A stretch of 64,000 nucleotides of DNA, from assembly GCA_016204335.1 (NCBI GenBank), contig JACQKU010000014.1:4988-68987 (forward strand), read 5' to 3'. Below the pieces are notes generated by a model. It saw nothing but the letters and a program-made list of their open reading frames with translations. It was not told the DNA's origin and searched no databases. Every line of letters starts with the position of its first letter. Position 1 is the first letter of the stretch. Source of the stretch: Candidatus Liptonbacteria bacterium. GTDB lineage: Bacteria > Patescibacteriota > Minisyncoccia > UBA6257 > 2-01-FULL-56-20. Below are positions 8,672 through 62,714 of this stretch, piece after piece. Made by a program: the position numbers and the translations under genes.

Positions 8672-8805
8672 TAAATAAAAGAAAATAGTTTATGGAAAAT
8701 AGAAATTGGTAATGGAAATAAGAAAATGGAAAATAGTACATATCAAATTTCCAATTTCCAGTTTCTATTACTAATTTCCAATTTCCAGCAACCAATTTCT
8801 AAATT

Positions 8806-15922: not shown

Positions 15923-16001
15923 AATGCAAAAAGCCTTTAACAATTCTTTTTTAATTTCTTCTTTTTCATTTTGCATTTTGAGATTTGATTTTTGAATTTT
16001 C
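15881..16001 (+). repeat. MITE-like long hairpin family 1 (AAAATCAAAATTCAAACTGCAAA..ATGCAAAAA / TTTTTCATTTTGCATTTTGAGATTTGATTTTTGAATTTT), copy 1
   Basis: ~40-bp inverted arms; left arm encodes the last residues and stop of the upstream gene; right arm ends 2 nt before the sucD-like ATG; near-identical copy at 59735-59857. Confidence 0.8.
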
Positions 16002-19107: not shown

Positions 19108-19896
19108 ATGCAAAAACTCATTGTTGCTAATTGGAAGATGAATCCAATCTCTGCGAAAGAGGCGTTTTCGCTTGCGAAGAAGATTGATGCGGGAATTCCG
19201 AAGAAAAAAAATATCGAAGTTGTTATCGCGCCGCCGTTTCCATACCTTGAATGTATCAAGTATCAAGTATCAAGCATCAAGTTGGGAGCGCAGGATGTAT
19301 TTTGGGAAGACAAGGGAGCATACACGGGCGAAGTGTCGCCGACGATGCTCAAAAATCTCGGCGCAGAGTATGTGATTGTCGGCCACTCGGAGCGGCGCCG
19401 CCTTCTAAATGAAACCGACGAGATGGTTAACAAAAAAGTTCAGGCGTCGATGAAAGCCGGTTTGAAAGTTATTTTGTGCGTCGGCGAACCCAAACGAGCG
19501 ACAAGAGACATGCGACAAGGAATAAAGGAAGCGAAAAGTTTTGTAAAACGACAATTGCAGAGAGATTTAAAAGGAATTTCCAAATCCCATGTCGCTAATC
19601 CCATGTCGCTTATTGTAGCTTACGAGCCGATATGGGCAATCAGCGCAGGCGGCGCCGGAAAACCGGACAAGCCCGAAGACGCCGCCGAAATGATACGATT
19701 TATTAAGCAATTCCTCACTACTCACTACTCATTACTCGCTACTCCTGTCTTGTACGGCGGCTCCGTAAATTCCTCAAACGTCCGGAATTTCCTGCAGTAT
19801 GAAGAAGTGGATGGCGCGCTGGTCGGTAGCGCGAGTTTAAAGCATCAAGAATTTAAAAAGATAATCGCCGCAGTTTCATCGGTTGCGTATTATTAA
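19108..19896 (+). CDS. tpiA: triosephosphate isomerase
   Basis: IVANWKMN, GHSERR, YGGSVN motifs; carries two heptamer tandem-repeat tracts in-frame. Confidence 0.9.
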   Translation: MQKLIVANWKMNPISAKEAFSLAKKIDAGIPKKKNIEVVIAPPFPYLECIKYQVSSIKLGAQDVFWEDKGAYTGEVSPTMLKNLGAEYVIVGHSERRRLLNETDEMVNKKVQASMKAGLKVILCVGEPKRATRDMRQGIKEAKSFVKRQLQRDLKGISKSHVANPMSLIVAYEPIWAISAGGAGKPDKPEDAAEMIRFIKQFLTTHYSLLATPVLYGGSVNSSNVRNFLQYEEVDGALVGSASLKHQEFKKIIAAVSSVAYY

Positions 19897-24452: not shown

Positions 24453-24599
24453 ATGAATTGGGCGATTGCGCTTCTTTCTCTGGTCGGGATGGCGTGCCTC
24501 GCGCATGCCATGCCGGCGCATCCCTTGAACGCTGGTATCGGATTCACCCTTTACGCCGGTACCCTCGGTCTGGGCATGTGGGGCGTCGCGACCAGCTGA
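24453..24599 (+). CDS. small hydrophobic ORF (48 aa) with strong AGGAGG RBS
   Basis: AGGAGGATCGGAATG..; MNWAIALLSLVGMACLAHAMPA..; below ORF-track size cutoff. Confidence 0.3.
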   Translation: MNWAIALLSLVGMACLAHAMPAHPLNAGIGFTLYAGTLGLGMWGVATS

Positions 24600-26060
24600 C
24601 CTCCTCTGCTCACAATCTTCCCGCCGTTCCAGTCCAGGCCCCCACACGCCGCACAGGCGTTCGTCGGGGGTCTCGTTCATTTTTGAGACTTTTCGAAGTG
24701 AGAATACGTATATGGAAGTTTTTTCCCGCTTCTACCCAACGCGGAGATTTTCGTTTTGAAAGCAGCTCTCGGAGGCAACAAAAGCTTGGTGTCCGAAGGA
24801 CTTTTGTTGCTGAGAGGAAGACGAAAAACACCGCTGGAGTGTTTTTACGGCGGTGCTTTCAAAACGAAAACCGGAGCACCTGCACAAGTTCAGATACATA
24901 TGAGACTTTTCGAACGGTCGAAAAGTCATGCGAATCCATAGCAAAATAGCTCATACCCGAGGGTTTGTCTCAACCTACAACGAGGCGCTACGCTTGCGGG
25001 ATATGATTACCCGTAAAGCAGAGGAACGCGCCCGCATCCTCGCGTTCTGGCAGAAGCACGGGGATGCCGCAGCCAAAGAGGCGTTCACCATTTCTCGTCC
25101 CACCTTGTTTCGATGGCAGAACAATCTCCATGCCGGAAGCGGCAAGCTCGAGGCATTGAATCCGGGAAGCACCGCGCCGAAGAACAGACGGAAACGGACG
25201 ATCCCTGAATCAGTCAAAGACCTCATTCTCACGGAACGTTCACGCGAGCGCATAGGCAAAGAGAAACTTGCCTTGCTTCTCAAGGAAGACGGCATCGCAA
25301 CGCTCTCGCCGTCAACGGTCGGCAGGATGCTCGATGATATGAAGCGCGCCGGCAAACTTCCGAACCCGCGCAAACTCTCTTTCTCGGGAAAGACCGGACG
25401 GCTCAACGAGCGAATAGCCCCGCAATACAAGAAGAAACTGCGGAGCAATGGCCATGAGGGAGCTCTCGTGAAAGCCGATACCGTGGTGAGATTCACGAAC
25501 GGCATCAAGCGGTATATTCTGACCGCGATTGATCAAGAAACGAAGTTTGCTTTCGCGTATGGCTACCCCTCGCATGGCTCGCAGCATGCCGCTGAGTTTA
25601 TGCAGACCTTCAAAGACGTGGCGCCAATTTCTCTGACTCATGTGCAGACGGATAACGGAAGCGAATTTGCAAATCATTTTGAGTCCTATCTGACCACAGA
25701 AGGCATTATCCATTTCCATATTTATCCCCGTTCTCCCCAGATGAATGCGGAGATCGAACGATTCAACCGGACCTTGTCCGAAGCCTTTATCTCGAAGAAC
25801 AGACATTTGTTGGCATACGACCTTCCCGCATTCAATCGAGAACTTATGGATTGGTTACTGTGGTACAACACGCGCAGGCCGCACTGGTCGATTGGCTTGA
25901 TTTCTCCGTTGAGGTATATTGTGAATCAACTACCCGCCGAAGAGTCTCATATGTTGTGGACGAGTACAGCACCTTGACTTTTAGTTGCAAGCCATGCTAT
26001 ACTCTCTTCGAATGAGTGTGAATATGCCTTAACGATGATATCGACTAAGGTATGTCGCAT
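24600..26060 (+). mobile_element. probable IS element carrying the transposase; ends not resolved
   Basis: Transposase ORF preceded by a 330-bp structured non-coding tract with GAGACTTTTCGAA direct repeats; no clean terminal inverted repeats found by eye. Confidence 0.35.
24928..25977 (+). CDS. IS481-like family DDE transposase (HTH + rve integrase core)
   Basis: N-terminal HTH (ISRPTLFRWQ), DDE core with DNGSEF, C-terminal YNTRRPHWSIGLISP; alternative start at 25003. Confidence 0.8.
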   Translation: MRIHSKIAHTRGFVSTYNEALRLRDMITRKAEERARILAFWQKHGDAAAKEAFTISRPTLFRWQNNLHAGSGKLEALNPGSTAPKNRRKRTIPESVKDLILTERSRERIGKEKLALLLKEDGIATLSPSTVGRMLDDMKRAGKLPNPRKLSFSGKTGRLNERIAPQYKKKLRSNGHEGALVKADTVVRFTNGIKRYILTAIDQETKFAFAYGYPSHGSQHAAEFMQTFKDVAPISLTHVQTDNGSEFANHFESYLTTEGIIHFHIYPRSPQMNAEIERFNRTLSEAFISKNRHLLAYDLPAFNRELMDWLLWYNTRRPHWSIGLISPLRYIVNQLPAEESHMLWTSTAP

Positions 26061-28372: not shown

Positions 28373-31144
28373 ATGTCAATTTTAAAAACGATTTTCGGCG
28401 ATTCAAACGACCGATATATAAAATCTCTCAAGCCGGCAATCGATGAGATAAACGACCTTGAAGAAAAATTCAAGGAATTTTCCGATTCGGAACTGCGCGC
28501 TTTAACCGATGGATTCAAAAATCGCCTGAAAGAAGGCGAGACGCTTGACGACATATTGGTCGAGGCGTTTGCCGCGGTTCGGGAGGTTGCGAAGCGGACG
28601 CTTAGCCAGCGCCCGTTCGACGTTCAGTTAATGGGGGGCATTGTTCTTCATCGCGGCGCGGTTGCGGAAATGGTGACCGGCGAAGGAAAGACGCTCGCCG
28701 CCGTGGCGCCGGCGTATCTCAACGCGCTTGCCGGCGAAGGAGCGCATATCGTGACCGTGAATGAATATCTCGCACGTCGCGACGCCGTATGGATGGGCCA
28801 GATTTACCGCGCGCTCGGTTTGAGCGTTGCTTGTCTGGTGCCGAACGCCGCGTTCGCGTACGACCCTTCCTATACGCAGATTAACGCGGATGCAGACGCA
28901 GATAAACGCGGATATATCAGCGAAAATCAGCGTGAAAATTTGCGAGAATCCGCGCTGTTGGATCGAGAACGCGATTCAACGGGAGGTTTTTTGATACAAC
29001 AGGAATTTTTGCGGCCCGTTTCGAGGCGCGAAGCGTATTTGTCGGACATTGTCTACGGCACAAACCATGAATTCGGATTCGATTATCTTCGCGACAATCT
29101 CGCGTACTCGTTCGAAGACCAAGTCCAAAGCGCGCAGATTAACGCAGATATTGAAATTCACGCGGATCAACGCAGATATAATATCAGCGAAAATCCGCGT
29201 CTCGATCAGCGAAAATCCGCGCACTATTACGCCATCATCGACGAGGTTGACAGCATTCTTATCGATGAGGCAAGGACGCCGCTCATTATTTCCGCTCCGG
29301 ACGCGGAATCGAGCGAGTTCTATAAAACATTTTCAAGAATTGTGGAACGTCTCCAGCCGGAAGAGGACTACAAAGTCGATGAAAAATTCAGAACTGTGAG
29401 CATTAACGATTCCGGAATAGAAAAAGTGGAAAAAATAATCGGCATTCAGAATTTGTACGCTCCGGAAAATCTTCGCTTGGTTCATTTTCTCGAAGAGTGT
29501 CTGAAAGCGAAAACGCTTTTCCGGCGCGACAAGGACTATGTCGTGAAAAACGGAGAAGTGATTATCGTCGACGAGTTTACCGGCAGGATGTTGCAGGGAC
29601 GGAGATACAACGCCGGACTTCATCAGGCGATTGAGGCGAAAGAAGGCGTGTTCGTGAAAGAAGAATCGAGAACATACGCGAAAATTTCGATTCAGAATTA
29701 TTTCAGGATTTATAAAAAAATCGCGGGCATGACCGGCACCGCGCAAACGTCCGCCGAAGAGTTTCACAAAGTGTATAACCTTGAAGTCGTGAGCATTCCG
29801 ACGAACCGGAAGCTTGTTCGGGAGCAGCTGCCGGATGTGATTTATAAAACAGCGGGTGCGAAATGGGACGCGGTTGTGAAAGAAATCGAGGCGTTGCACC
29901 GGCGCGGCCAGCCGGTTTTGGTAGGCACAACTTCGATTGAAAAAAACGAGCGCGTGTCCGAAAAACTCCATCGCGCGGGAATACCTCACGAGGTTTTGAA
30001 CGCGAAGAATAACGAACACGAAGGCGCGATTATCGCGCAAGCGGGCCGGCCGAACGCCGTGACAGTCGCGACGAATATGGCGGGGCGCGGCGTTGACATT
30101 ATTTTGGGCGGGAATCCGCCTTCGCCCGGCGAAGCGGAGAAAATACGGGGATTGGGCGGATTGCATGTCATCGGCACCGAGCGGCATGAAGCGCGCCGGA
30201 TTGACAATCAGTTGCGAGGGAGGGCAGGCAGGCAAGGCGACCCGGGTTCGGCGCAATTTTTTCTGTCGCTTGAAGACGATTTGCTCCGGATTTTCGGCGG
30301 TGACAGAATTAAAAATATGATGGAGACATTCAACCTGCCGGAAGACCAGCCGATTCAGGCGAGTTTTCTTTCGAAAGTAATCGGCCAGGCGCAGGCGAAA
30401 GTGGAAGGATTCAATTTCGATTTGCGGAAACGGCTTCTCGAGTACGACGACGTGTTGAACAAACAGCGAACATCGATTTACAAGCGCAGGCAGGAAATTC
30501 TTGAAAGTATGAATCGCGAGGACGTGGTAAAATTCATTTTCGACGCATCAAGCGAGTATCTCAATGTCCTTGCGAGCGTAGCGAAGCAATCTCCGGAGAT
30601 CGCCGCGGCCGAAGGCCTCGCGATGACGAGGAAGGCTTTCGAGGAAGCGGGAATTGTGGACAAGAATCATCCCTACCCCGAAGACGATTCGCAGGAAAAT
30701 CTGATTGAATTGCTCCACGCGCGGAGCGGAGAAGCCGCGGCCGACCCGTTTTCGAGAAACCGGCTTTTAAGCATTCTCGACCTTCTCTGGATGAACCAGT
30801 TGGACGATTTGGAGGCATTGAGCGAGTCAGTGGGGCTTCGCGCGTACGGCCAAAAAGACCCGATTGTCGAATACCGGCACGAAGCCCGCCGTCTTTTCAA
30901 GGATTTCTGGAACAATTTCAACGGGTGGGTGTTTATGAACATTTTTAAATTAGCGACAAGCGACAAGCGACAAGCGACAAGTTCGCAAATTTCAACTCCT
31001 CCTGTATTGCATGTCGCTAATAGCCATGTCGCAAAAGTTGGCCGCAACGATCCCTGCCCGTGCGGAGCGGTGAACCCGGCAACTGACCAGATATACAAAT
31101 ATAAGAAATGCGGTTTAATCAATGCGTCATATCATAAAAAATAG
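28373..31144 (+). CDS. secA: preprotein translocase ATPase SecA with in-frame repeat insertions
   Basis: DEAD motor (MGGIVLHRGAVAEMVTGEGKT, DEVDSILIDEARTPLIIS), C-terminal zinc motif CPCGA. Two extra segments (~28860-28990 and ~29130-29230) come from related hairpin-forming DNA repeats. A (GCGACAA)x4 tract sits at 30953-30981. Confidence 0.95.
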   Translation: MSILKTIFGDSNDRYIKSLKPAIDEINDLEEKFKEFSDSELRALTDGFKNRLKEGETLDDILVEAFAAVREVAKRTLSQRPFDVQLMGGIVLHRGAVAEMVTGEGKTLAAVAPAYLNALAGEGAHIVTVNEYLARRDAVWMGQIYRALGLSVACLVPNAAFAYDPSYTQINADADADKRGYISENQRENLRESALLDRERDSTGGFLIQQEFLRPVSRREAYLSDIVYGTNHEFGFDYLRDNLAYSFEDQVQSAQINADIEIHADQRRYNISENPRLDQRKSAHYYAIIDEVDSILIDEARTPLIISAPDAESSEFYKTFSRIVERLQPEEDYKVDEKFRTVSINDSGIEKVEKIIGIQNLYAPENLRLVHFLEECLKAKTLFRRDKDYVVKNGEVIIVDEFTGRMLQGRRYNAGLHQAIEAKEGVFVKEESRTYAKISIQNYFRIYKKIAGMTGTAQTSAEEFHKVYNLEVVSIPTNRKLVREQLPDVIYKTAGAKWDAVVKEIEALHRRGQPVLVGTTSIEKNERVSEKLHRAGIPHEVLNAKNNEHEGAIIAQAGRPNAVTVATNMAGRGVDIILGGNPPSPGEAEKIRGLGGLHVIGTERHEARRIDNQLRGRAGRQGDPGSAQFFLSLEDDLLRIFGGDRIKNMMETFNLPEDQPIQASFLSKVIGQAQAKVEGFNFDLRKRLLEYDDVLNKQRTSIYKRRQEILESMNREDVVKFIFDASSEYLNVLASVAKQSPEIAAAEGLAMTRKAFEEAGIVDKNHPYPEDDSQENLIELLHARSGEAAADPFSRNRLLSILDLLWMNQLDDLEALSESVGLRAYGQKDPIVEYRHEARRLFKDFWNNFNGWVFMNIFKLATSDKRQATSSQISTPPVLHVANSHVAKVGRNDPCPCGAVNPATDQIYKYKKCGLINASYHKK

Positions 31145-31295
31145 AGCGAAGTCCGCCGTAGTTTTAACGAAGGAGGACGGAGCGAAAAAAGAGAGCGGAC
31201 AGCCGGTTAAGTACAAACACTGCCATGGGAAAAATCTTTGATATGCTAAAGAACGGAAGCGGAGCCCTGAGCGTAGTCGAAGGGCGGAAGCGGGA

Positions 31296-36216: not shown

Positions 36217-36807
36217 ATGACAAAAGTATTTTTCAACTTCAATTCTGAAGTTGTGAAGATTTTAAAAAGAGGCGGCGCCGGCGTTATGCCTACCGATACA
36301 ATCTACGGAATCGTCGGTTCGGCGATGTCGCGGAAAACGGTTGCCCGGATTTACCGGCTTCGAAAGCGCCGGCCTGACAAGCCGATGATTATTTTGATAA
36401 ATTCGTTCAGCGTTTTGAAAATTTTCGGCATCGTGCCGGACGCACAGACAAAAAAGCTTTTGAAAAGATTCTGGCCCGGCAAAGTGAGCGTAATCTTAAG
36501 AGTCAAGAGTCATGAGTCAAAAATCAAGTTAAAATATCTTCATCGTGGGACGAATTCGCTTGCATTTCGTTTGCCTAAACCCTATTGGCTAAGAAAACTA
36601 TTGGCTAAGACGGGTCCGCTTGTCGCCCCGAGCGCGAATCTTGAAGGAAAAACTCCCGCTACGACGATAAAAGAGGCGCAAAAATATTTCGGCGCTAAAG
36701 CCGATTTTTACGTTGATGCGGGCAAGCTCATCGGCGTTCCATCCGCGATTGTCGCGTTCCGAAGCGGCAAAGCCCTTTTTTTACGGAAAGGCGCAAATGG
36801 AAAATAG
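36217..36807 (+). CDS. tsaC: L-threonylcarbamoyladenylate synthase TsaC/YrdC
   Basis: GGAGVMPTDTIYGI YrdC motif; 196 aa; contains (GAGTCAA)-type heptamer tract at ~36497-36527. Confidence 0.8.
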   Translation: MTKVFFNFNSEVVKILKRGGAGVMPTDTIYGIVGSAMSRKTVARIYRLRKRRPDKPMIILINSFSVLKIFGIVPDAQTKKLLKRFWPGKVSVILRVKSHESKIKLKYLHRGTNSLAFRLPKPYWLRKLLAKTGPLVAPSANLEGKTPATTIKEAQKYFGAKADFYVDAGKLIGVPSAIVAFRSGKALFLRKGANGK

Positions 36808-37137: not shown

Positions 37138-37772
37138 CTATGAAAGGAATTAAAATCCACGACATCAGCAGGCCCATCGGCAGAGGCGAGGCGGTTTATC
37201 CGGGCAACGAGGCGCCCGCGCTGAAAAGAATAAAAGTTTTTTCGAAAGACAAATCCAATCTTTTTTCTTTGAGTTTGGGGCTTCACACGGCGAGCCATCT
37301 TGACGCGCCGCTTCATTATATTAGGAACGGCAAGACGGCGGATAAACTCTCGCTTGAAAAATGCGTTGGCTGGTGCCGCGTCGTAAACTTTGAAAATATC
37401 AAACGAGAAATAGGGGAAACTGAAATTAAAAGAGTCAAGCCCAAAGCGGAAGAAATCATTCTTTTCAAAACCAAAAACTCGAAACTGTCGGCATCCAAAC
37501 GATTCAATAAAAATTTCGTTTATTTGAATGAGTCAGGAGCGCGGTTTTTAGTGAAGTCGAGAATAAAAGCAGTGGGCATTGACGGGCCGTCTATAAGAAA
37601 ATTCCGCCTGAAACCGGACACCGTGCATCCAATTCTTCTCAAAGCCGGAATCGGAGTTTATGAGGGGTTGTATTTTCGCGATGTGAAGCCGGGTCGGTAC
37701 TTTTTCATCGGCTTGCCGCTCAAAATCAAAGACGCCGAGGCGTCGCCGGTTCGGGCGATTTTGATAAAATAA
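37134..37772 (+). CDS. cyclase family protein (kynurenine formamidase-like)
   Basis: HTASHLDAPLHY matches cyclase family HxGTHxDAPxH. Confidence 0.65.
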   Translation: MTMKGIKIHDISRPIGRGEAVYPGNEAPALKRIKVFSKDKSNLFSLSLGLHTASHLDAPLHYIRNGKTADKLSLEKCVGWCRVVNFENIKREIGETEIKRVKPKAEEIILFKTKNSKLSASKRFNKNFVYLNESGARFLVKSRIKAVGIDGPSIRKFRLKPDTVHPILLKAGIGVYEGLYFRDVKPGRYFFIGLPLKIKDAEASPVRAILIK

Positions 37773-37858
37773 ATTGAGTAATCACTGATTATACAAATCC
37801 GCGCAAATATACGAAAATTTGTATATTACTTATTATTCGTATATTCGCGAATGCTCTT

Positions 37859-38983
37859 ATGAACGGCACTGACTTCAAATCAAAAAATCCCACGATACTC
37901 GTTATTTTCGGAGCCACGGGGGATTTGACGAGCCGGAAGCTCATGCCGGCGCTTTTTCATCTTTACCGGAAGAAACTTTTACCGCCGCTGTTTCAGGTTG
38001 TTGGGTTTTCGCGGCAGGATTTGTCCGACGCGGAGTTCCAATCGAGAGTGAAAAAAACGATTGGCCGAAGCAAAAAAAATGGCGCCACGGTGGAAGTCGT
38101 CGAATCGTTTTCCAAACTTTTCATATACTCGAAAGGATTTTTCGAAAAAAAGAAGGGATACAAAGATTTGGCTGAACTGCTCGGATACCGCGATAACGAA
38201 TGGAGGACTTGCGCGAACAAACTTTTTTATCTCGCGGTGCCGCCGCAATATTACAAGGGCATTCTGAAAAATCTGACTGCTTCCGGACTGACCGAACCGT
38301 GCAGTCCCGAAGAGGGATGGACGCGGGTAATTGTCGAAAAACCGTTCGGCAGAAATCTCAAAACCGCAGAAGAGCTCGACGCCCTTTTGGGCAAACTCTT
38401 TAAAGAAGAGCAGATTTACCGCATCGACCATTATCTCGGCAAGGAAACGGTTCAAAACATTCTCGCGTTCAGGTTTTCGAATTATTTTCTCGAGCCGGCG
38501 TGGGATAAACATTCTATCGAGGATATCAGAATTCGCCTGTGGGAAACCGGCGGCGTCGAGGGCCGCGGCGGTTTTTACGATACGGCAGGGGCGCTTCGCG
38601 ACGTGGGGCAGAATCATTTACTTCAGCTTTTGGCGCTTTTCACCATGGAAAATCCGGGCAAGTTTGACGCCGAGTCAATCCGCCGCAGGCGCGCCGAGAC
38701 GCTCAACTGTCTTAAGATTTTTACGAAAAAAGACGTGGAGCGTTTTGCGGTCCGGGCGCAATATGAAGGATACAGGAATGAGAAAGACGTAAAATCAGAT
38801 TCAAATACGGAAACATATTTCCGGATTACCGCTTTTTTGGACACGCCGCGTTTTGAAGGAGTACCGCTATATCTTGAAAGCGGGAAGATGATGCCTGAAT
38901 CGAAAGCCGAAGTTGTCGTCACGTTCAAGCATCCGTTGCCGTGTCTGTGTCCCGTCGAGGGACAAGGGACAAGGGACAAGTAA
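37859..38983 (+). pseudogene. zwf: glucose-6-phosphate dehydrogenase, N-terminal 374 aa, truncated by frameshift in a (GGGACAA)x3 tract
   Basis: ILVIFGATGDLTSRKLMPALFHLY NADP motif; reading frame ends inside the heptamer tract 38958-38980; C-terminal G6PD homology continues in another frame (38941 ORF). Confidence 0.75.
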
Positions 38984-40347
38984 AACATTACAAGAATATC
39001 CTCCGGTATCAGATTCAGCCGAGAGAACGCATTACCACGTCATTCTGGGTTAAGCGGCCGGGCGCGGAGATGATAATGGAGGAAAAAGATTTTTCGTTCG
39101 ATTACAAAGGCGCGTTTTCAAAAGAACTCTTCGTTGACGCATACGAGCGGCTCTTGCTTGATGCCATTTCAGGCAATCAAACGCTTTTTGTAAGCACCGA
39201 AGAAATCGCGGCAAGCTGGAAATTTATCGACCCGATTTCAAGAGCGTGGAAGAAAAATTCCGCATCACTTCTTTCGTACGCAAAAAAAACACTCCCCATT
39301 TCCGAAGAACTGGATGGTTCGGGCTTGTCCCGAAAAGAAATCGGTTTGATAGGTCTTGGAAAAATGGGGAAAAATATGGCGCTCCGGCTCTTGGAAAAAA
39401 GATGGAATGTGATTGCGTACGATGTAAGCCCGGAAGCACGCCAGGAAATTATCTTGAAAGGCGGGGTTGCCACAAATAGTATTCCTGAACTGGTTGGACA
39501 GTTGGAATTACCCCGAACAATTTGGTTAATGGTACCTGCGGGCAAAATTCTCGACGAAGTAATTTTCGGCACTTCGGCAAAGCTCAGTGCCGACCCTGAG
39601 CAGCGTCGAAGGGTCGGTTCGAACGGCCTCGCCGCGCTTCTTGCAAAAGGCGACATGATAATAGACGGCGGCAATTCGCTTTACGAGGATTCAATCAGGC
39701 GCGCGAAAAAGTTGAAAAAATTCGGCATCAGTTTTCTCGACGCCGGTGTCTCGGGAGGTCCCGGAGGGGCGAGGAACGGCGCGTGCCTGATGGTGGGCGG
39801 AGAGAAATCGGCGTACGACAAGCGCGAAGATTTATTCCGCGACCTCGCGGTTTCGGACGGATATGAGTATGTCGGAAAAGCGGGAGCCGGCCATTTCGTG
39901 AAAATGATTCATAACGGCATCGAGTACGGAATGATGCAGGCGATTGCGGAAGGCTTCGATGTGCTTCGCACCGCGGACTTACGCGGACTGAACCCTTCGA
40001 CACGGCTCAGGGCAAGCGCGGACAAACGCGGAAAATTGAAATATAAATTTAACCTCAAGAAAATAGCCGGCATTTATAATCGTGGGAGCGTGATTGAATC
40101 GCGGCTCGTCGGCTGGCTCAAGAACGCGTTTGAGGAATACGGCGAAAACCTCGAAAGAATTTCGGGCTCTGTCGGCCATACCGGAGAAGGGGAATGGACG
40201 GTCAAAACCGCGAAAAAACTCGGCGTGCCCGCCAAGGTAATCGAAGACGCGTTCAAATTCCGCGTGCAGTCCGCGAAAAAACCGAGTTATGTTGGAAAAA
40301 TTCTCTCGGCATTGCGAAATCAGTTCGGAGGACATAAGGCAAAGTAA
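38941..40347 (+). CDS. gnd: G6PD C-terminal segment fused in-frame to 6-phosphogluconate dehydrogenase (short Gnd type)
   Basis: ILRYQIQPRE..FVDAYERLLLDAISGNQTLFV (G6PD C-terminus) runs without a stop into IGLIGLGKMGKNMALRL Rossmann start of 6PGDH and GAGHFVKMIHNGIEYG. Confidence 0.75.
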   Translation: MSVSRRGTRDKGQVKHYKNILRYQIQPRERITTSFWVKRPGAEMIMEEKDFSFDYKGAFSKELFVDAYERLLLDAISGNQTLFVSTEEIAASWKFIDPISRAWKKNSASLLSYAKKTLPISEELDGSGLSRKEIGLIGLGKMGKNMALRLLEKRWNVIAYDVSPEARQEIILKGGVATNSIPELVGQLELPRTIWLMVPAGKILDEVIFGTSAKLSADPEQRRRVGSNGLAALLAKGDMIIDGGNSLYEDSIRRAKKLKKFGISFLDAGVSGGPGGARNGACLMVGGEKSAYDKREDLFRDLAVSDGYEYVGKAGAGHFVKMIHNGIEYGMMQAIAEGFDVLRTADLRGLNPSTRLRASADKRGKLKYKFNLKKIAGIYNRGSVIESRLVGWLKNAFEEYGENLERISGSVGHTGEGEWTVKTAKKLGVPAKVIEDAFKFRVQSAKKPSYVGKILSALRNQFGGHKAK

Positions 40348-40398
40348 ATTCAAAAATCAAATATCAAAATGCAAAATGACAATGCAAAATTAAAAAAT
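40346..40398 (+). repeat. MITE family 1 left-arm-only copy (AAATTCAAAAATCAAATATCAAAATGCAAAATGACAATGCAAAATTAAAAAATG)
   Basis: Overlaps and supplies the N-terminal codons of ORF 40369. Confidence 0.6.
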
Positions 40399-40914
40399 GA
40401 TTTTCTAGAAAACGTAATCGCGACCAACTCTATCTTTGCGGCTTTTGGAAGAGCTAATATTTATTCACCTATTGCGAATAAAAAAGATAAAGAAAAACTC
40501 AAACACTTTATAAAAGCGAGATTAAAGAAATACTTGGACGAATATGATGGTGGAAATATCTCTGAAAAAGAACATATCTCGAATATTCAGAAGTTGGCAG
40601 ATGAGACATCCACATATTTTAGAGATATTTTGTTAGATGGTAGACTTCGTATAGGCACAGCACAAAAACTTTTAAATCTCTATCTTAAATATATCTGGGT
40701 TTTGGGCTGGATGAAAAAACCTCCACCCCATTGTCCTTTCGATTCGAGAGTAATTGGAAAATTAGGGAAGAATGTATCTATCAAATGTAAAAAATTTACA
40801 GAAACAGATGATGAAAACTGTTATTATGAATGGGTAAATGCTGTGCGAAATATCGCTGGAGAAAAAATCGCAGAATGGGAATTGCGCTTTTTTAATGAAA
40901 CGAACAGAGTTTAA
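40369..40914 (+). CDS. hypothetical protein, AT-rich (GC ~33%)
   Basis: 181-aa ORF, no recognisable motif; strongly deviant composition. Confidence 0.45.
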   Translation: MQNDNAKLKNDFLENVIATNSIFAAFGRANIYSPIANKKDKEKLKHFIKARLKKYLDEYDGGNISEKEHISNIQKLADETSTYFRDILLDGRLRIGTAQKLLNLYLKYIWVLGWMKKPPPHCPFDSRVIGKLGKNVSIKCKKFTETDDENCYYEWVNAVRNIAGEKIAEWELRFFNETNRV

Positions 40915-41665: not shown

Positions 41666-42061
41666 ATGCCGATTCTCAAAAAACCAAAGATTTTTCATTG
41701 GACCAGCCATAGCCGGGCAAAAATGCGTTTTTACGGATTGTCGGAAGCGCGATTGAGGCGCGTAATTCGTTCGCCACATCGGATTGAAGAGGGAATCGCG
41801 CCGGACACGGTCGCGATGATGCAGTCGGCCGGCAGCGCGAAGCATCCTTATGAAATCTGGCTGATGATTCAAGAGACGTGGATAAACGCAGACCTCACGC
41901 GGAATAACGCGGAAAAAAGAACACGTCAGCGTAAGTCAGCGTTAAGTCCGCGTAAGTCAGCGGTTATAAAAGTCATCAGCGCGTGGCGGTATCCGGGCAA
42001 AACAAAGCCGGGACAATCCCTGCCCGCGGAGATTTTGAGAGAAATGAGAAATTTTTTGTAG
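41666..42061 (+). CDS. DUF4258-like protein with 10-11-nt tandem repeat insertion
   Basis: HSRAKMRFYGLSEARLRRVI N-terminal motif; GTAAGTCAGCG-type repeats at ~41925-41960 encode RQRKSALSPRKSAV. Confidence 0.4.
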   Translation: MPILKKPKIFHWTSHSRAKMRFYGLSEARLRRVIRSPHRIEEGIAPDTVAMMQSAGSAKHPYEIWLMIQETWINADLTRNNAEKRTRQRKSALSPRKSAVIKVISAWRYPGKTKPGQSLPAEILREMRNFL

Positions 42062-42794: not shown

Positions 42795-43071
42795 AAACGG
42801 AAGGTTTTCTTTAGGGTGTTTTTTCCGGCAAGCAAGGACTTTTCTGCGCGAGAAGCTTTAGGGAAATTTTCCAACAGCGAGCAAAAGTTATCCACAGGTC
42901 CTGTTTTTGCGATATGCTACAATAAAGCCAGTTAGAATATCATAGTGCGTATGGTATAGTTATGGCGTATGGCGTGTCGTGTATAGTAAAGGTCAAATTA
43001 AAACTTTAATAACACAGTAACAAAAGTCGAAAAACCGTAACACAAATAATAAAATAATAAAATAATAAAAA

Positions 43072-48856: not shown

Positions 48857-49537
48857 CTAATTCCGCTTCTCAAGCGCGGCGCCTAAAGTGTCGTCGTCGG
48901 CGAATTCAATTTCGCCTCCAGTGGGGAGGCCGCGGCCGAGACGAGTAATTTTTTTCGCGAGCGGTTTCAGTTCCTTTTCGACAAGCGAAGAATTAAAATC
49001 GCCGTGACTTGTAGGATTGAATCCCAAGATGATTTCTTCCGCCTGCCCTGAGCCCGGTTGAAGGGCTTGCCCTGCTACGGCACCTGTCGAATGAGTCGTA
49101 TCCGGCGTATTTGACGTGTGTGTCGAATTTTTCGAATTGGCGATGAAATTTTTAAGATTTTGCAACCGGAGTTTTTGTCGGTCATCAAGAATGCCGGTTT
49201 TGGAAATCGCGCCCATAATGAAATACCGGCCGTTGAACCGAGACGTATTTTCAATTGAAAGGAGGTCGGTTTCTTTTTCGACAATCATTATTATGTCCTG
49301 CCTGCGCGCCGGGCTCCGGCAAATGTCGCAGAGCGTGTCCGGATTCTGGTGAATGAAGAAACACCGCTCGCATATTTTTATTTTTTTAAGTTCGTCGATG
49401 TTTTGCGAGAGGTTTTGGATGTTGTTCGAGCCAAGGCCAATGAGATAAAAAACAAGCCGGATAGCTTGTCTCGGTCCGATGGAAGGCAGTTCTGCAAGCG
49501 CGTCAACGAGCGCGCGGATGGAATCTGGCAGTTTCAT
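48857..49537 (-). CDS. recR: recombination protein RecR (with ~40-aa low-complexity insertion)
   Basis: HhH N-terminus, C4 zinc finger CERC..CDIC, Toprim; insert NSTHTSNTPDTTHSTGAVAG.. Confidence 0.85.
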   Translation of the reverse strand: MKLPDSIRALVDALAELPSIGPRQAIRLVFYLIGLGSNNIQNLSQNIDELKKIKICERCFFIHQNPDTLCDICRSPARRQDIIMIVEKETDLLSIENTSRFNGRYFIMGAISKTGILDDRQKLRLQNLKNFIANSKNSTHTSNTPDTTHSTGAVAGQALQPGSGQAEEIILGFNPTSHGDFNSSLVEKELKPLAKKITRLGRGLPTGGEIEFADDDTLGAALEKRN

Positions 49538-58298: not shown

Positions 58299-58448
58299 AT
58301 GGGAGGCGTACCAGTAAAACATCATAGCAAGGGAAAAGTCGGCAGGCGGAGGTCGCATATGGCTTTGAAAAAAGAGCGGGTTTTTGTTTGCAAGAACTGC
58401 GGCGGGCCGAAACTGCCGCACCGGATTTGCGGGCAGTGCAGGAAGTAA
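58299..58448 (+). CDS. rpmF: 50S ribosomal protein L32
   Basis: GGVPVKHHSKGKVGRRRSH..CKNCGGPKLPHRICGQC; ORF-track start 58263 uses a non-ATG start; coordinates may be off by 1. Confidence 0.7.
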   Translation: MGGVPVKHHSKGKVGRRRSHMALKKERVFVCKNCGGPKLPHRICGQCRK

Positions 58449-58598
58449 ATTCAAAAATCAAATATCAAAGTGCAAAATGAAAGCGTAAAATGAAAAAAGA
58501 ATTCAAGCACATTCTTTTTTCCGCCCGAGGCGGATCCGCCTTCGGCGGAGAATTTTGATTCGTCATTTTGATTTTTGACTTTTGCATTTTGTATTTTA
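58447..58598 (+). repeat. MITE family 1 degenerate copy with double CCGCC/GGCGG hairpin loop
   Basis: AAATTCAAAAATCAAATATCAAAGTGCAAAATGAAAGCG.. / ..TTTTGATTTTTGACTTTTGCATTTTGTATTTT; loop TCCGCCCGAGGCGGATCCGCCTTCGGCGGAG resembles 10362-10395. Confidence 0.6.
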
Positions 58599-59036: not shown

Positions 59037-59735
59037 ATGAATAACGAAGCAGGCAATCTTGAAAATCTCGAAACCGTCATCGGCTTCAATTTCAAAAATA
59101 AAGATTTTCTCAAAGAGGCGCTGACGCACCGGTCGTATTTGAACGAAAATCCCGGCTGGCCGTTTTCCCACAACGAGCGTCTGGAATATCTCGGCGACGC
59201 GGTGCTTGAGCTTGTGGTGAGCGAAGCGCTTTTCAAAAAATTTCCCAAAGCGCCCGAGGGGCAGATGACAGTGCTTCGCGCCGCGCTCGTGAATTACCAA
59301 ATGCTCGGCAGCGTTGCCGCGGCTCTCCGCCTTGACGATTTTATTTTTATGTCGCGGGGGGAGCGCGCTGACACCTCAAAAGCGCGGGAAGTGATTCTCG
59401 CGAACGCCATTGAGTCGCTCATCGGCGCGATTTATCTTGATGCCGGACTTGAAGCCGTAGAGGGGTTTGTCGAACGATTTATTTTCACGCGTCTTCCGGA
59501 AATCCTCGAAACCAAAAGCTATAAGGACTCCAAAAGCGAACTTCAGGAAATAATCCAGGAAAAACTGAAAATAACGCCGACCTACGGAGTTCTTGGAGAA
59601 AGCGGGCCGGCGCACCAGCGGACATTCCGCATAGGGGTTTATTTCGGGAATGAATTGATTGCCGAAGGCGCGGGCGCTTCTAAGCAGGAAGCCGAAGTCG
59701 AAGCGGCGAAAAAAGCGCTGGAGAAGCGTAAATAA
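59037..59735 (+). CDS. rnc: ribonuclease III
   Basis: HRSYLNENPGWPFSHNERLEYLGDAVLELVVSEALF signature and C-terminal dsRBD. Confidence 0.9.
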   Translation: MNNEAGNLENLETVIGFNFKNKDFLKEALTHRSYLNENPGWPFSHNERLEYLGDAVLELVVSEALFKKFPKAPEGQMTVLRAALVNYQMLGSVAAALRLDDFIFMSRGERADTSKAREVILANAIESLIGAIYLDAGLEAVEGFVERFIFTRLPEILETKSYKDSKSELQEIIQEKLKITPTYGVLGESGPAHQRTFRIGVYFGNELIAEGAGASKQEAEVEAAKKALEKRK

Positions 59736-59857
59736 AATCAAAATTCAAACTGCAAACATCAAAATGAAAATGTAAAATGCAAAAAACCCTTAAAAATTCT
59801 TTTTTAATTTTTTCTTTTTCATTTTGCATTTTGAGATTTGATTTTTGAATTTTCCAT
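59735..59857 (+). repeat. MITE family 1 copy 4 (near-identical to 15881-16001)
   Basis: AAAATCAAAATTCAAACTGCAAACATCAAAATGAAAATGTAAAATGCAAAAAA .. TTTTTCATTTTGCATTTTGAGATTTGATTTTTGAATTTT, ending 2 nt before the smc ATG. Confidence 0.8.
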
Positions 59858-59858
59858 C

Positions 59859-62048
59859 ATGCCCAATCTTCTTAAACGCCTCGAACTAAACGGGTTCAAA
59901 TCGTTCGCGCAAAAGACAGTTCTCGAATTTCCGACCGGCATCACGGCGATTGTCGGTCCCAACGGTTCGGGAAAATCTAACGTCATAGACGCGATTCGCT
60001 GGCTGTTGGGCGAGCGCGAAGCGAAAAATTTGCGCGGCGCAAAAGCGGAGGACCTGATTTTCGCGGGCACTCCGAAAAAGGCGCGGCTTGGCCAGGCGCA
60101 CGCATCGCTTCATTTCGAAAACGAGAAGAATTTTTTTCCGCTTGAGTTCGCCGAAATTTCCGTTTCCCGGCAGGTTGACCGCGACGGCTCGAATAAGTTT
60201 TTTTTGAATAAGGCGGAAATCCGGCTCAAGGACCTGATAGATTTTTTCGCGAAAGTCAGGCTGGGAACAAAGGGTTTGGTGGTTATAACGCAGGGCAACA
60301 GCGACATTTTTGTCCAGGCCTCTCCAGCCGGAAGGCGCGAAATGCTCGAGGAAATGCTCGGCTTACGCGAATATCAGCTGAAAAAAAATTCATCCGAACG
60401 CCGCCTGAAAAACACGGAAATCAATCTTGAGAAAGTTGACGCCTTGATAAAGGAAATTCTGCCGCATCTTCGTTCGCTCAAACGGCAGACGGGCCGGTGG
60501 GAAAAACGGGAGGCGCTTGCGGACGAACTTCATAATCTTGAAAATCAATTTTTCGGGCATCAATGGCGGGAGCTTGGAGATAAGATTTCCGGAATTGAAA
60601 AAGAGATTGGCGTCCATCGGGAAGAGTTGAAAATTTTTGAAAAAGAAAAAGACGCCGCGGATGAATATCTCAAAAAAGTCGAGGCGAGCAGGCCGGCGGA
60701 ACGCGAGGAAATGGCGGGCATCAAGAAAGAACTGAACGAGGTTCTTGAAAAAAGAAGCCAATTTCAGAAAGAACTCGGCCGTTTGGAAGCCCGGCTCGAA
60801 ATATACCAGAAAAAGCCGGGCGATGTTTCGGTTCCGGCGACGAAACTCGTCGAATTTATAGAAAAGGCGAGAACGAGACTCGAAAAAACCCTTGACGCGG
60901 AAATCGAATCACTGCGCGATGTTATACGCGAACTTATGCGTGAAATCGACGTTCTTTTTTCCGCCGGAGAAAAAGAGGATATGGCACTGCCGCAGGACCT
61001 TAAATCGGGCCTCGCGGAACTCGAGAAAAATTTGGCGGGTTTGGACGGGGAAATTTCGGCGCTCCGGCTGAAAGAGGAAACGCTCGGAAAAAACCAGGAG
61101 GACTTTTATCGCTTGTTCAAAAAAGCCGCGGCTGGAATCGAGGCGGCGAAAGACAAAATCGAGAAATGGGAAAATAAGAATCAGGAGCGGCTTTTTGAAA
61201 AGGAACGTCTGGAACTCCGTTTATCGGAGTTGAAGCGCCAGATAGAACAAGCGGGCCGGAAGCCGGAAGAGTTTAATAAGGTTATGCATTCGGAGATTCC
61301 GCAATCGGAATCGTTTTCCTCGTTTGAGAAACGGATTTTTAAGTTGCGCGGCGACTTGGCGGGCATCGGCGAAGTTGACGAAGCGCTTCTTAAAGAAGCG
61401 AGGGAAACCGAAGAACGGCACAATTTTCTCGAACGGCAGTTCGAGGATTTGGGAAAAGCAAAAAACGACCTTAGGCAGTTGATAGAAGAATTAAGCGATA
61501 AAATAAGGAACGAGTTTATGGAAGCTCTAGGAAAAATTAACGAAGAGTTCGACACGTTTTTTCGGCTGATGTTCGACGGAGGCCGCGCGAAACTCAAGAT
61601 AGTGGGTCAAGGGTCAAGTATCAAGGGTCAAGTAAAGGCGAAAGGCGCCGAAGAAAATAAAGAGTCGAATGTTGCGGCGGAAGAAGAGGCGGAGAAAGAA
61701 GAAAAAGAAGTAGAGGAGGGAATAGAAATAAGCGTGAATTTGCCGCGAAAAAAAATACATTCTCTGGAAACGCTTTCCGGCGGCGAGAGGAGTTTGGTCG
61801 GCATCGCGGCATTGTTCGCCCTGATTTCGGTCAGCCCGCCGCCGTTTCTGGTTCTTGACGAAGTGGACGCCGCGCTCGATTCCCGAAATTCCCGGCGGTT
61901 CGGCGAGATGCTCAAAGAATTTTCGAAAAAAACCCAGTTTATCGTCGTCACGCACAACCGCGCCGTAATGGAAACGGCAAACGTGTTATACGGAGTGACG
62001 CTCAACGAAGACGGCACTTCAAAAATTTTGTCGTTGAAATTGGAATAA
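59859..62048 (+). CDS. smc: chromosome segregation SMC-like ATPase (short, ~729 aa)
   Basis: Walker A GPNGSGKSN, long coiled coil, signature LSGGERSL, Walker B FLVLDEVDAALD; rnc-smc synteny; (GGGTCAA)-type heptamer tract at 61605-61633. Confidence 0.75.
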   Translation: MPNLLKRLELNGFKSFAQKTVLEFPTGITAIVGPNGSGKSNVIDAIRWLLGEREAKNLRGAKAEDLIFAGTPKKARLGQAHASLHFENEKNFFPLEFAEISVSRQVDRDGSNKFFLNKAEIRLKDLIDFFAKVRLGTKGLVVITQGNSDIFVQASPAGRREMLEEMLGLREYQLKKNSSERRLKNTEINLEKVDALIKEILPHLRSLKRQTGRWEKREALADELHNLENQFFGHQWRELGDKISGIEKEIGVHREELKIFEKEKDAADEYLKKVEASRPAEREEMAGIKKELNEVLEKRSQFQKELGRLEARLEIYQKKPGDVSVPATKLVEFIEKARTRLEKTLDAEIESLRDVIRELMREIDVLFSAGEKEDMALPQDLKSGLAELEKNLAGLDGEISALRLKEETLGKNQEDFYRLFKKAAAGIEAAKDKIEKWENKNQERLFEKERLELRLSELKRQIEQAGRKPEEFNKVMHSEIPQSESFSSFEKRIFKLRGDLAGIGEVDEALLKEARETEERHNFLERQFEDLGKAKNDLRQLIEELSDKIRNEFMEALGKINEEFDTFFRLMFDGGRAKLKIVGQGSSIKGQVKAKGAEENKESNVAAEEEAEKEEKEVEEGIEISVNLPRKKIHSLETLSGGERSLVGIAALFALISVSPPPFLVLDEVDAALDSRNSRRFGEMLKEFSKKTQFIVVTHNRAVMETANVLYGVTLNEDGTSKILSLKLE

Positions 62049-62104: not shown

Positions 62105-62714
62105 ACTCGTTAAGTTGTCAAAGAGCGAAACCGATGGGCGGGCGGAGAGTCAGCAGGACTCCCCGCCCGGAATCCTTTCGTTTCCCTTTGTAAGGGATAC
62201 GCTAGGTTTCTGCATTCGCCAGGGAGTTCGTCCACTGCCGATTGCGCCCACCATTGCAAATTCAGGCGGGCAAGAAAAGAGGGTTTTTCTTTTCTTACCC
62301 GGACGGCCTATGCGCCCGATGCGCAAGGTCCTCTGCGACCTCCGGAGGCTGGAGGCGCACCCAAAGTTTTCTGAATAAAGGATAGTACGACTCCGGCCAT
62401 TTGACAAGTTTTGAATGTCTGCTACACTTTAGAAGATTCCAAAGACCATAGGTGCCAAAGGGATAAACTTGCCCGCCGTAGTCCGCCATAGGTGGACGAA
62501 GGATGGGTCCTATGCAGGAGATTTCATTCGGATGGGCGCTTTCGTGATGCGCTATTCGGGCGAAACGCCTGCTTTGGAGAGCGGGTTTTTTATTTATAAG
62601 TATCAGCATAAATCCGCAAAAATCAGCATGAATCAGCGTGGAAAGCGCGCAACGATTTCTAGGTTTGGACCGCTGATAGATGCCGATTTCAGCTGATTAA
62701 TACCGATAAACTTC

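Follow-up and report, generated by a model that had tools for sequence, protein, structure and literature searches.

The stretch of DNA analysed here, called the window throughout, comprises 64,000 nucleotides (nt) of contig JACQKU010000014.1 and belongs to a metagenome-assembled genome (MAG) of a Candidatus Liptonbacteria bacterium. It carries a locus in which zwf, for glucose-6-phosphate dehydrogenase (G6PD), and gnd, for 6-phosphogluconate dehydrogenase (6PGDH), are fused to each other and, at the same time, split over two reading frames at a tandem array of the heptamer GGGACAA (Table 1). The domains follow the order G6PD_N, G6PD_C, NAD_binding_2 and 6PGD on one strand with no gene between them. 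One uninterrupted open reading frame (ORF) of ~770-850 codons is absent from the DNA as sequenced, and only editing the tract to one or four copies gives one. The two ORFs are identical to the products MBI4086098.1 and MBI4086099.1 of an 87,312-bp contig of the 'Candidatus Liptonbacteria bacterium' MAG (ORF2 equals P0009 at 100% identity), which the NCBI annotation presents as two ordinary genes, 'glucose-6-phosphate dehydrogenase' and 'NADP-dependent phosphogluconate dehydrogenase', respectively.

Anatomy of the split locus

An earlier note on this DNA had described G6PD homology running to the stop at 38983 and resuming in another frame, and profile matches confirm this description. ORF1 matches G6PD_N over positions 1-183, G6PD_C over 1-168 of 296 and the TIGR00871 zwf model over 2-352 of 486, and ORF2, in the -1 frame with respect to ORF1, matches G6PD_C over 179-277 and the zwf model over 367-464, followed by NAD_binding_2, 6PGD and TIGR00872 gnd_rel. 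Since these matches leave a homology gap at 38936-38983, the break lies within this interval, which includes the heptamer tract, in agreement with the placement of the break at the threefold repeat in the note. Direct reading of 38950-38990 gives three GGGACAA copies at 38959-38979 followed by a G at 38980, and Tandem Repeats Finder (TRF) reports 38958-38980 with a period of 7, 3.3 copies and 100% match. The 14-mer GGGACAAGGGACAA occurs in the window only within the zwf tract, at two overlapping positions, compared with 0.03 occurrences expected. ORF2 crosses G6PD_C, the linker and NAD_binding_2 without a stop, as the note had also stated, so that the locus holds a true fusion at the domain junction. 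Editing in silico by one additional heptamer yields an unbroken protein of 831 aa and removal of two heptamers yields one of 824 aa, which bears out the proposal that four copies, one copy or a 1-nt insertion would restore an ORF of ~830 aa.

The tract lies in a variable loop between the invariant PCLCP motif (P-C-(L/F)-C) and the conserved (K/R/E/Q)-H-Y/F motif of alignment A1. In intact relatives, the loop varies from 2 to ~30 residues, and both the one-copy loop VEGQV and the four-copy loop VEGQGTRDKGQV fall inside this natural range. An AlphaFold model of the restored fusion, built from a 14-sequence alignment, was poor (mean predicted local distance difference test score (pLDDT) 63, predicted template modelling score 0.42) and was used solely for the disorder of the tract residues. 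In this low-confidence model, residues 365-378 have pLDDT values below 50 and no secondary structure, and are located between strands 349-356 and 382-389. In the same low-confidence model, three strands and two helices make up the ~100 fold residues missing from ORF1. This part belongs, in solved G6PDs, to the large beta+alpha domain, which forms the dimer interface. Lacking this part of the fold, ORF1 alone is very unlikely to be active as a G6PD. Structure matches of the restored fusion are G6PD chains for residues 3-480 and short 6PGDH chains (PDB 4e21 and 8ihe) for residues 495-831, and no PDB chain among these matches spans both enzyme halves.

Programmed -1 ribosomal frameshifting on the three-copy allele could in principle give the full-length fusion, because the shift needed is indeed -1 and the G_GGA at 38959-38962 would, as judged from the sequence, let one P-site tRNA-Gly re-pair in the -1 frame. 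However, the zero-frame codons across the tract (GAG GGA CAA GGG ACA AGG GAC AAG TAA, preceded by CCG TGT CTG TGT CCC GTC) contain no slippery heptamer of the form X_XXY_YYZ. The minimum free energy of 38950-39080, -31.7 kcal/mol, is close to the shuffle mean of -30.1 (z = -0.44), indicating no downstream RNA structure, and none of ~200 homologous genes needs a shift there. With the frameshift not conserved either, this explanation is scarcely credible and was rejected.

Table 1. Features of the zwf-gnd locus, heptamer arrays and neighbouring elements in the window.
Feature	Position	Strand	Basis or remark
zwf-gnd fusion locus, split over two frames	37859..40347	+	831 aa at 4 heptamer copies, 824 aa at 1
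ORF1, truncated G6PD, 374 aa, TAA at 38981-38983	37859..38983	+	G6PD_N and part of G6PD_C; MBI4086098.1
(GGGACAA)x3 + G, frame-setting heptamer array	38959..38980	+	sequence, TRF, alignment A1
ORF2, 468 aa from GTG 38941, -1 frame	38941..40347	+	NCBI start 38947 gives 466 aa, MBI4086099.1
Rest of the G6PD fold (ORF2 residues 15-116)	38983..39288	+	G6PD_C 179-277, zwf model 367-464
Short linker joining both enzymes, in place of the usual G6PD C-terminal tail	39289..39336	+	alignment A1 columns ~500-530
Short-chain decarboxylating 6PGDH module (~300 aa, gnd_rel/YqeC-type) with two in-frame inserts	39337..40344	+	profile matches; PDB 4e21, 8ihe
GTATCAA x4.3	19253-19282		inside tpiA; perfect
AGCGACA x3.3, degenerate	19497-19519		inside tpiA
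14-mer x2	19583-19610		inside tpiA
CTCACTA x4.4, degenerate	19714-19744		inside tpiA
AGCGACA x4.3	30952-30981		inside secA; perfect
Degenerate heptamer array	36498-36528		inside yrdC
GGGTCAA x4.1, degenerate	61604-61632		inside SMC-family gene (smc)
AT-rich heptamer array (AAATNCA-like, 6.6 copies)	40346..40390	+	begins at the gnd stop codon
Dispersed 21-nt element, copy 1	39594..39614	-	inside first gnd insert, which most homologues lack
Dispersed 21-nt element, copy 2	39992..40012	+	inside second gnd insert, opposite orientation
14-nt inverted repeat CGCAAATATACGAA / TTCGTATATTCGCG with nested shorter palindromes	37802..37849		in the 86-nt spacer upstream of zwf

Fused relatives and the age of the break

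A search with the restored protein recovered more than 120 full-length fused homologues of 766-848 aa, each with the four domains, and all named ones are from Patescibacteria. The top homologues, P0001, P0002 and P0003, show 80%, 78% and 69% identity, respectively, over 100% of the query, and fused relatives with 52-80% identity over 98-100% of the length have the same short linker and neighbourhood. A scan of one genome per species gave at least 595 loci encoding relatives, and locus anatomy was counted in the best 80 of these. A single unbroken zwf-gnd ORF is present at 54 of the 80 loci, so that the fused orthologue sought in the earlier note exists many times over. The other 26 are unfused, 25 with adjacent separate zwf and gnd genes, plus L073. 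In the unfused loci, zwf stops at ~aa 460-490 and the gnd ATG follows a few codons on, with spacers of 0.1-1.3 kb in L075-L078. An interruption inside the G6PD loop was found at none of the 80 loci. The unfused L073 (4001-6442) carries an in-frame TAA at zwf codon 147 within the conserved E-K-P-F-G motif (LAI*KPFG), which could be independent damage or a sequencing error.

The abundance of fused orthologues shows the zwf-gnd fusion to be the ancestral and normal state in this lineage; in Parcubacteria/Patescibacteria, the oxidative pentose-phosphate enzymes usually take this form. The idea of a novel fusion was rejected, since hundreds of fused orthologues are present in databases. The order Sua5/YrdC, DUF5654, cyclase, zwf-gnd, PDDEXK nuclease and PBP is common to the window and to L001 and L004, the loci of P0001 and P0002. 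Contigs bearing a Coriobacteriia, Actinomycetes or Slackia label, some longer than 290 kb, also carry fused intact zwf-gnd genes of 43-49% identity (L028, L029, L032, L033, L037, L045, L046, L048, L055, L056, L060 and L061). Should these labels be correct, the fusion extends beyond the candidate phyla radiation (CPR). The fused proteins are named merely 'glucose-6-phosphate dehydrogenase' in the database, for example in MAGs of Parcubacteria, Andersenbacteria, Wildermuthbacteria and Harrisonbacteria. A zwf-gnd fusion goes unmentioned in the main survey of CPR metabolism (PMC7304191), and a literature search found no paper describing or characterising such a fusion in CPR; the architecture is abundant in databases and apparently unstudied. 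Similar C-terminal fusions of G6PD to an enzyme of the same pathway are the G6PD-6PGL (6-phosphogluconolactonase) fusions of Plasmodium, Giardia and Trichomonas and mammalian H6PD (PMC6165198; PDB 8em2 'GDH/6PGL endoplasmic bifunctional protein'). These fusions join G6PD to the lactonase of step 2, whereas the partner in Zwf-Gnd is the 6PGDH of step 3, so that the lactone intermediate must hydrolyse spontaneously or via a separate Pgl.

Compared with the fused Patescibacteria genes, with which it shares the conserved residues, the window gene alone is broken, by a -1 change in the PCLCP-KHY loop. With the unfused zwf and gnd of L005, L006, L017, L066 and L067 it shares gene order and orthology, whereas the product there is two polypeptides, divided at the domain junction by a zwf stop and a gnd ATG rather than, as in the window, ~100 residues inside the G6PD fold. 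This difference bears on the idea of a functional split, in which ORF1 is made, translation of ORF2 begins at an internal GTG or through translational coupling, and the fragments reassemble, or 6PGDH stays active and G6PD is lost. The position of the break in a loop that is unstructured, by alignment and by the low-confidence model, between two strands would suit such an arrangement, as would the 43-nt overlap of ORF2 with the end of ORF1 and the GTG codons at 38941 and 38947. The lack of a Shine-Dalgarno sequence is not a counter-argument to initiation, because Shine-Dalgarno-like motifs precede only 4 of the 49 window genes of at least 150 codons, and starts lie instead in AT-rich leaders. 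However, no recognisable start signal was found for ORF2, and no relative is organised in this way, all unfused ones being divided at the domain junction and none inside G6PD. A functional split is quite improbable on this evidence.

The loop DNA of the closest orthologues, CCGCCCGGGAGCGGCTCGGGCGGAGCGGTCAAGCATTAC in L001 and CCAATCAACAGACAACATTAC in L004, contains no heptamer array. That of L004 aligns naturally with the one-copy version of the window loop (AGACAA versus GGACAA), which reads GTC GAG GGA CAA GTA AAA CAT TAC. Among 84 related loci, TRF detected no period-7 array in this zwf loop.

The protein on both sides of the break is strongly conserved. All 199 positions that are conserved at 95% or more in 119 intact fused homologues are kept, 102 before and 97 after the break, compared with 197-199 of ~200 in intact control proteins, and none of the 86 invariant positions is lost from the restored protein. 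Identity of the G6PD part to P0001 is 93.5% downstream of the break versus 89.4% upstream. In the restored frame, the ratio of nonsynonymous to synonymous substitution rates (dN/dS) against L001 is 0.067 for aa 1-360, 0.031 for aa 379-470 and 0.11 for the gnd half, at dS of ~0.9-1.5. An old pseudogene was rejected, because every conserved residue is kept and dN/dS is low on either side of the break. It appears from these data that the break is very recent and that the gene is otherwise undamaged, and the recent pseudogenisation that the earlier note had offered as an alternative fits best.

A gene that is otherwise perfect is also what would be expected if the break were an artefact of assembly or consensus, or a minority allele, such that most cells carry four copies or one and the contig represents a rare variant or a mis-resolved bubble. 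The strain is present only once in the searched collections: the exact-flank pattern TGTGTCCCGTCGAG-N{0,30}-GTAAAACATTACAAG, which would reveal the same strain with another copy number, had zero matches in genome and metagenome contig collections, and the exact products of ORF1, ORF2 and the upstream cyclase were found on no other contig there. The copy number thus lacks independent confirmation. On the other hand, collapse of the array is unlikely because its 23 nt are spanned by one 150-nt read, and the loss of one 7-nt unit is atypical of assembler or sequencing error. In the essential genes of this contig, every other heptamer array keeps the frame, and no further split conserved gene was found among the overlapping ORF pairs checked. 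Taken together, these considerations make an artefact or minority allele unlikely.

Heptamer arrays and neighbouring elements

The zwf tract is accompanied by similar arrays elsewhere in the window. With periods of 5-12, the window has four perfect tandem repeats of three or more copies, namely three heptamers (in tpiA, secA and zwf) and one 8-mer (AAATAATA, 43044-43070), compared with zero in 30 shuffles of the window. The arrays inside tpiA, secA, yrdC and smc all keep the reading frame, and those of yrdC and secA lie in variable loops or linkers and cause little or no net length change compared with orthologues. The tpiA gene (19108-19896, 262 aa) holds four arrays, all frame-preserving. 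The C-terminal linker of secA has a 4.3-copy array in both the window and L091 (64% SecA identity), beginning at the same nucleotide after F-K-L-A, with units that differ in all copies, AGCGACA in the window versus AGCGAGT in L091 (12414-12444), which could reflect either recurrent expansion at the site or homogenisation. A GTTTCAA x3.6 array is located in the secA C-terminal linker of L129, too. Within the window, the unit AGCGACA recurs at 2 loci and ATTTTGA/AAAATGC at 5, and GGGACAA is restricted to zwf.

Many AT-rich degenerate heptamer arrays also occur in the spacers of the window. Near-identical counterparts of the array at the gnd stop codon lie at 58447 and 59734; those at 15962, 58565 and 59797 have the reverse orientation. 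A heptamer array just 3' of zwf-gnd is likewise present in L004, L006 and L014. The AT-rich family (AAAATCA/AAAATGC and the reverse complement) is positioned at gene boundaries (8692-8734, 8746-8787, 15962-16000, 40346-40390, 58447-58469, 58565-58597 and 59734-59853), and the pairs 8692/8746 and 59734/59797 are adjacent, inverted and hairpin-like. These arrays may be terminator or promoter elements.

A repeat survey of 1.65 Mb from 153 related loci (among L001-L164) showed that such arrays are a property of the lineage. The 23 perfect period-7 runs have lengths distributed evenly between 21 and 35 nt, with none longer, whereas periods 5 and 8-11 together reach three or more copies in only three runs and period 6 exceeds 18 nt in just two (25 and 28 nt). 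TRF arrays at periods 7, 14 and 21 number 59, 52 and 21, respectively, as many as at the codon-compatible periods 9, 12 and 15. The units are diverse, the arrays occur in coding and non-coding DNA, and array density in the window is about three times the average. A preferred array length deduced from the TRF peak at 30-32 nt was dropped, because its lower side is shaped by the score threshold; that the zwf tract is one unit short of a modal 4.3 copies is a correspondingly weak suggestion. Three arrays are unchanged between L111 and L112, strains that are 99.96% identical; this sole informative near-identical pair gives too few data for a rate and speaks weakly against very fast switching. A literature search for heptamer arrays in CPR found nothing relevant.

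The heptamer arrays of heterocystous cyanobacteria, known as short tandemly repeated repetitive (STRR) sequences, were reportedly described by Mazel et al. in 1990. STRR arrays are mainly intergenic and consist of few fixed units. Those of the present lineage may be comparable in being tandem heptamers dispersed over many sites, with some units recurring at several loci; unlike STRR arrays, they have highly diverse units, form perfect arrays of no more than ~35 nt and in many cases lie inside conserved coding genes.

The tract had been interpreted in the earlier note as a textbook contingency switch, in which the heptamer number would reversibly toggle the oxidative pentose-phosphate enzyme at a high rate as adaptive bet-hedging. 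Several features are compatible with this view: the unit is not a multiple of three and lies inside an ORF, in a loop tolerating 0 or 7 extra residues, the array exceeds chance expectation, the off state shows no decay, and the secA arrays at one site in two genomes with different units point to repeated expansion. A shared principle is also found in the (ATCTTTC)n tracts of the Haemophilus influenzae hmw1A/hmw2A promoters, where the copy number of a tandem heptamer sets expression and slipped-strand mispairing is presumed. However, the hmw-type tracts have 13-24 copies, are a conserved part of their locus and regulate surface or host-interaction genes (PMC8262952, PMC11868660), whereas the zwf tract has 3.3 copies, is known from one MAG and lies in a gene of central metabolism rather than a surface or restriction-modification gene. 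The rate of phase variation depends on repeat number (PMC11868660), and the tract is missing from the closest orthologues. Moreover, equivalent arrays sit in essential genes, where an off state would be lethal, so that the arrays as a class are not switches. The similar arrays in tpiA, secA, yrdC and smc indicate instead that the zwf tract is the product of a genome-wide repeat process. The interpretation as a dedicated switch is therefore not supported, and a contingency locus is improbable.

Other elements of the locus and the window were recorded as well. The inverted repeat upstream of zwf may, from its sequence, be an operator or a hairpin, and promoter and terminator scans of 37650-40500 remained at chance level. 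The two gnd inserts, which most homologues lack (alignment A1 columns ~620-640 and ~765-790), each contain a copy of a dispersed 21-nt element, ACCCTTCGAC-NNN-GCTCAGGG, also written (A/G)CCCTTCGAC-NNN-GCTCAGGG, of which the window has four copies (31265-31285, 39594-39614, 39992-40012 and 49046-49066) versus 0.07 expected. Arrays with a 10-nt period are found at 28874-28914 in secA (ACGCAGATAA), 40013-40032 in gnd (CAAACGCGGA), 41925-41962 (GTCAGCGTAA) and 62602-62637 (ATCAGCATAA), and are translated to charged inserts (..ADKRG.., ..ISENQRENLR.., ..QRKSA..). Two variable sites of secA are broken by such inserts, and the closest relative, L085, has different ones there. Between gnd and the PDDEXK nuclease gene, a 181-aa ORF (40369-40914) has no Pfam match, and its syntenic slot is filled with unrelated small ORFs of 67 aa in L001 and of 85 and 121 aa in L004. 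An IS3-like element at 24458-25977 consists of a 163-aa ORF overlapping a 349-aa ORF (HTH_32, rve integrase), a typical orfA/orfB arrangement.

Origin and meaning of the frameshift

The locus is probably best explained by a recent, unprogrammed replication-slippage frameshift of a zwf-gnd fusion gene in a dispensable pathway. This explanation builds on the anatomy of the locus, the ancestral fusion, the absence of the array from the closest orthologues, the lack of other decay and the lineage-wide excess of heptamers. We infer that slippage within the GGGACAA array, one instance of the period-7 arrays scattered over coding and non-coding DNA of the lineage, shifted the frame in a G6PD surface loop that tolerates length changes. 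The route could have been a gain of two copies by a single unit (+14 nt) or a loss of one copy from four in-frame units (-7 nt). Read as it stands, the DNA would yield a G6PD of 374 aa that stops ~100 residues before the end of the fold and presumably has no activity, and an N-terminally extended 6PGDH would be made only via an internal restart of translation. The oxidative pentose phosphate pathway is patchy across CPR (PMC7304191), so its loss would be tolerated, or neutral, and the pathway dispensable.

Some points weigh against this explanation. The three copies come from one assembled sequence and may represent a fixed, majority or minority allele. The gene shows no secondary damage at all, which would also be seen if it were intact in most cells or reverted frequently. 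In-frame arrays of three units (+21 nt) within essential genes imply recurrent changes in copy number, which leaves reversible switching of the gene on and off possible. In addition, the split lies in a loop, and the fragments might conceivably reassemble if ORF2 is translated.

The period-7 arrays of the lineage are the more unusual and unexpected element, compared with the zwf lesion, which is ordinary. A broader and rather speculative proposal, to which we give little credence at present, is that CPR bacteria of the Parcubacteria type harbour an undescribed class of actively turning-over short heptamer arrays with a strict period of 7, up to ~5 copies (35 nt) and diverse units in coding as well as non-coding DNA, which would arise and re-expand repeatedly, even at one secA codon in different genomes. 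The zwf-gnd tract would then be an out-of-frame intermediate, and reversible inactivation and loop-length variation throughout the lineage would be tolerated or exploited to toggle dispensable functions.

For the slippage explanation, which we prefer, the immediate consequence concerns annotation. MBI4086098.1 and MBI4086099.1 each represent one half of a single broken fusion gene rather than a separate intact G6PD and 6PGDH and should be counted accordingly, and in metabolic reconstruction of this MAG, the oxidative pentose phosphate pathway should be regarded as probably off or uncertain. The Zwf-Gnd fusion itself is a target for biochemistry, in particular with regard to the handling of the intermediate without a lactonase and the cofactor of each half. 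The heptamer arrays, which are specifically enriched in these genomes and present even inside essential genes, merit a study of their own. If they turn over fast, they would constitute an unrecognised mutational force on the proteins and gene content of ultra-small bacteria.

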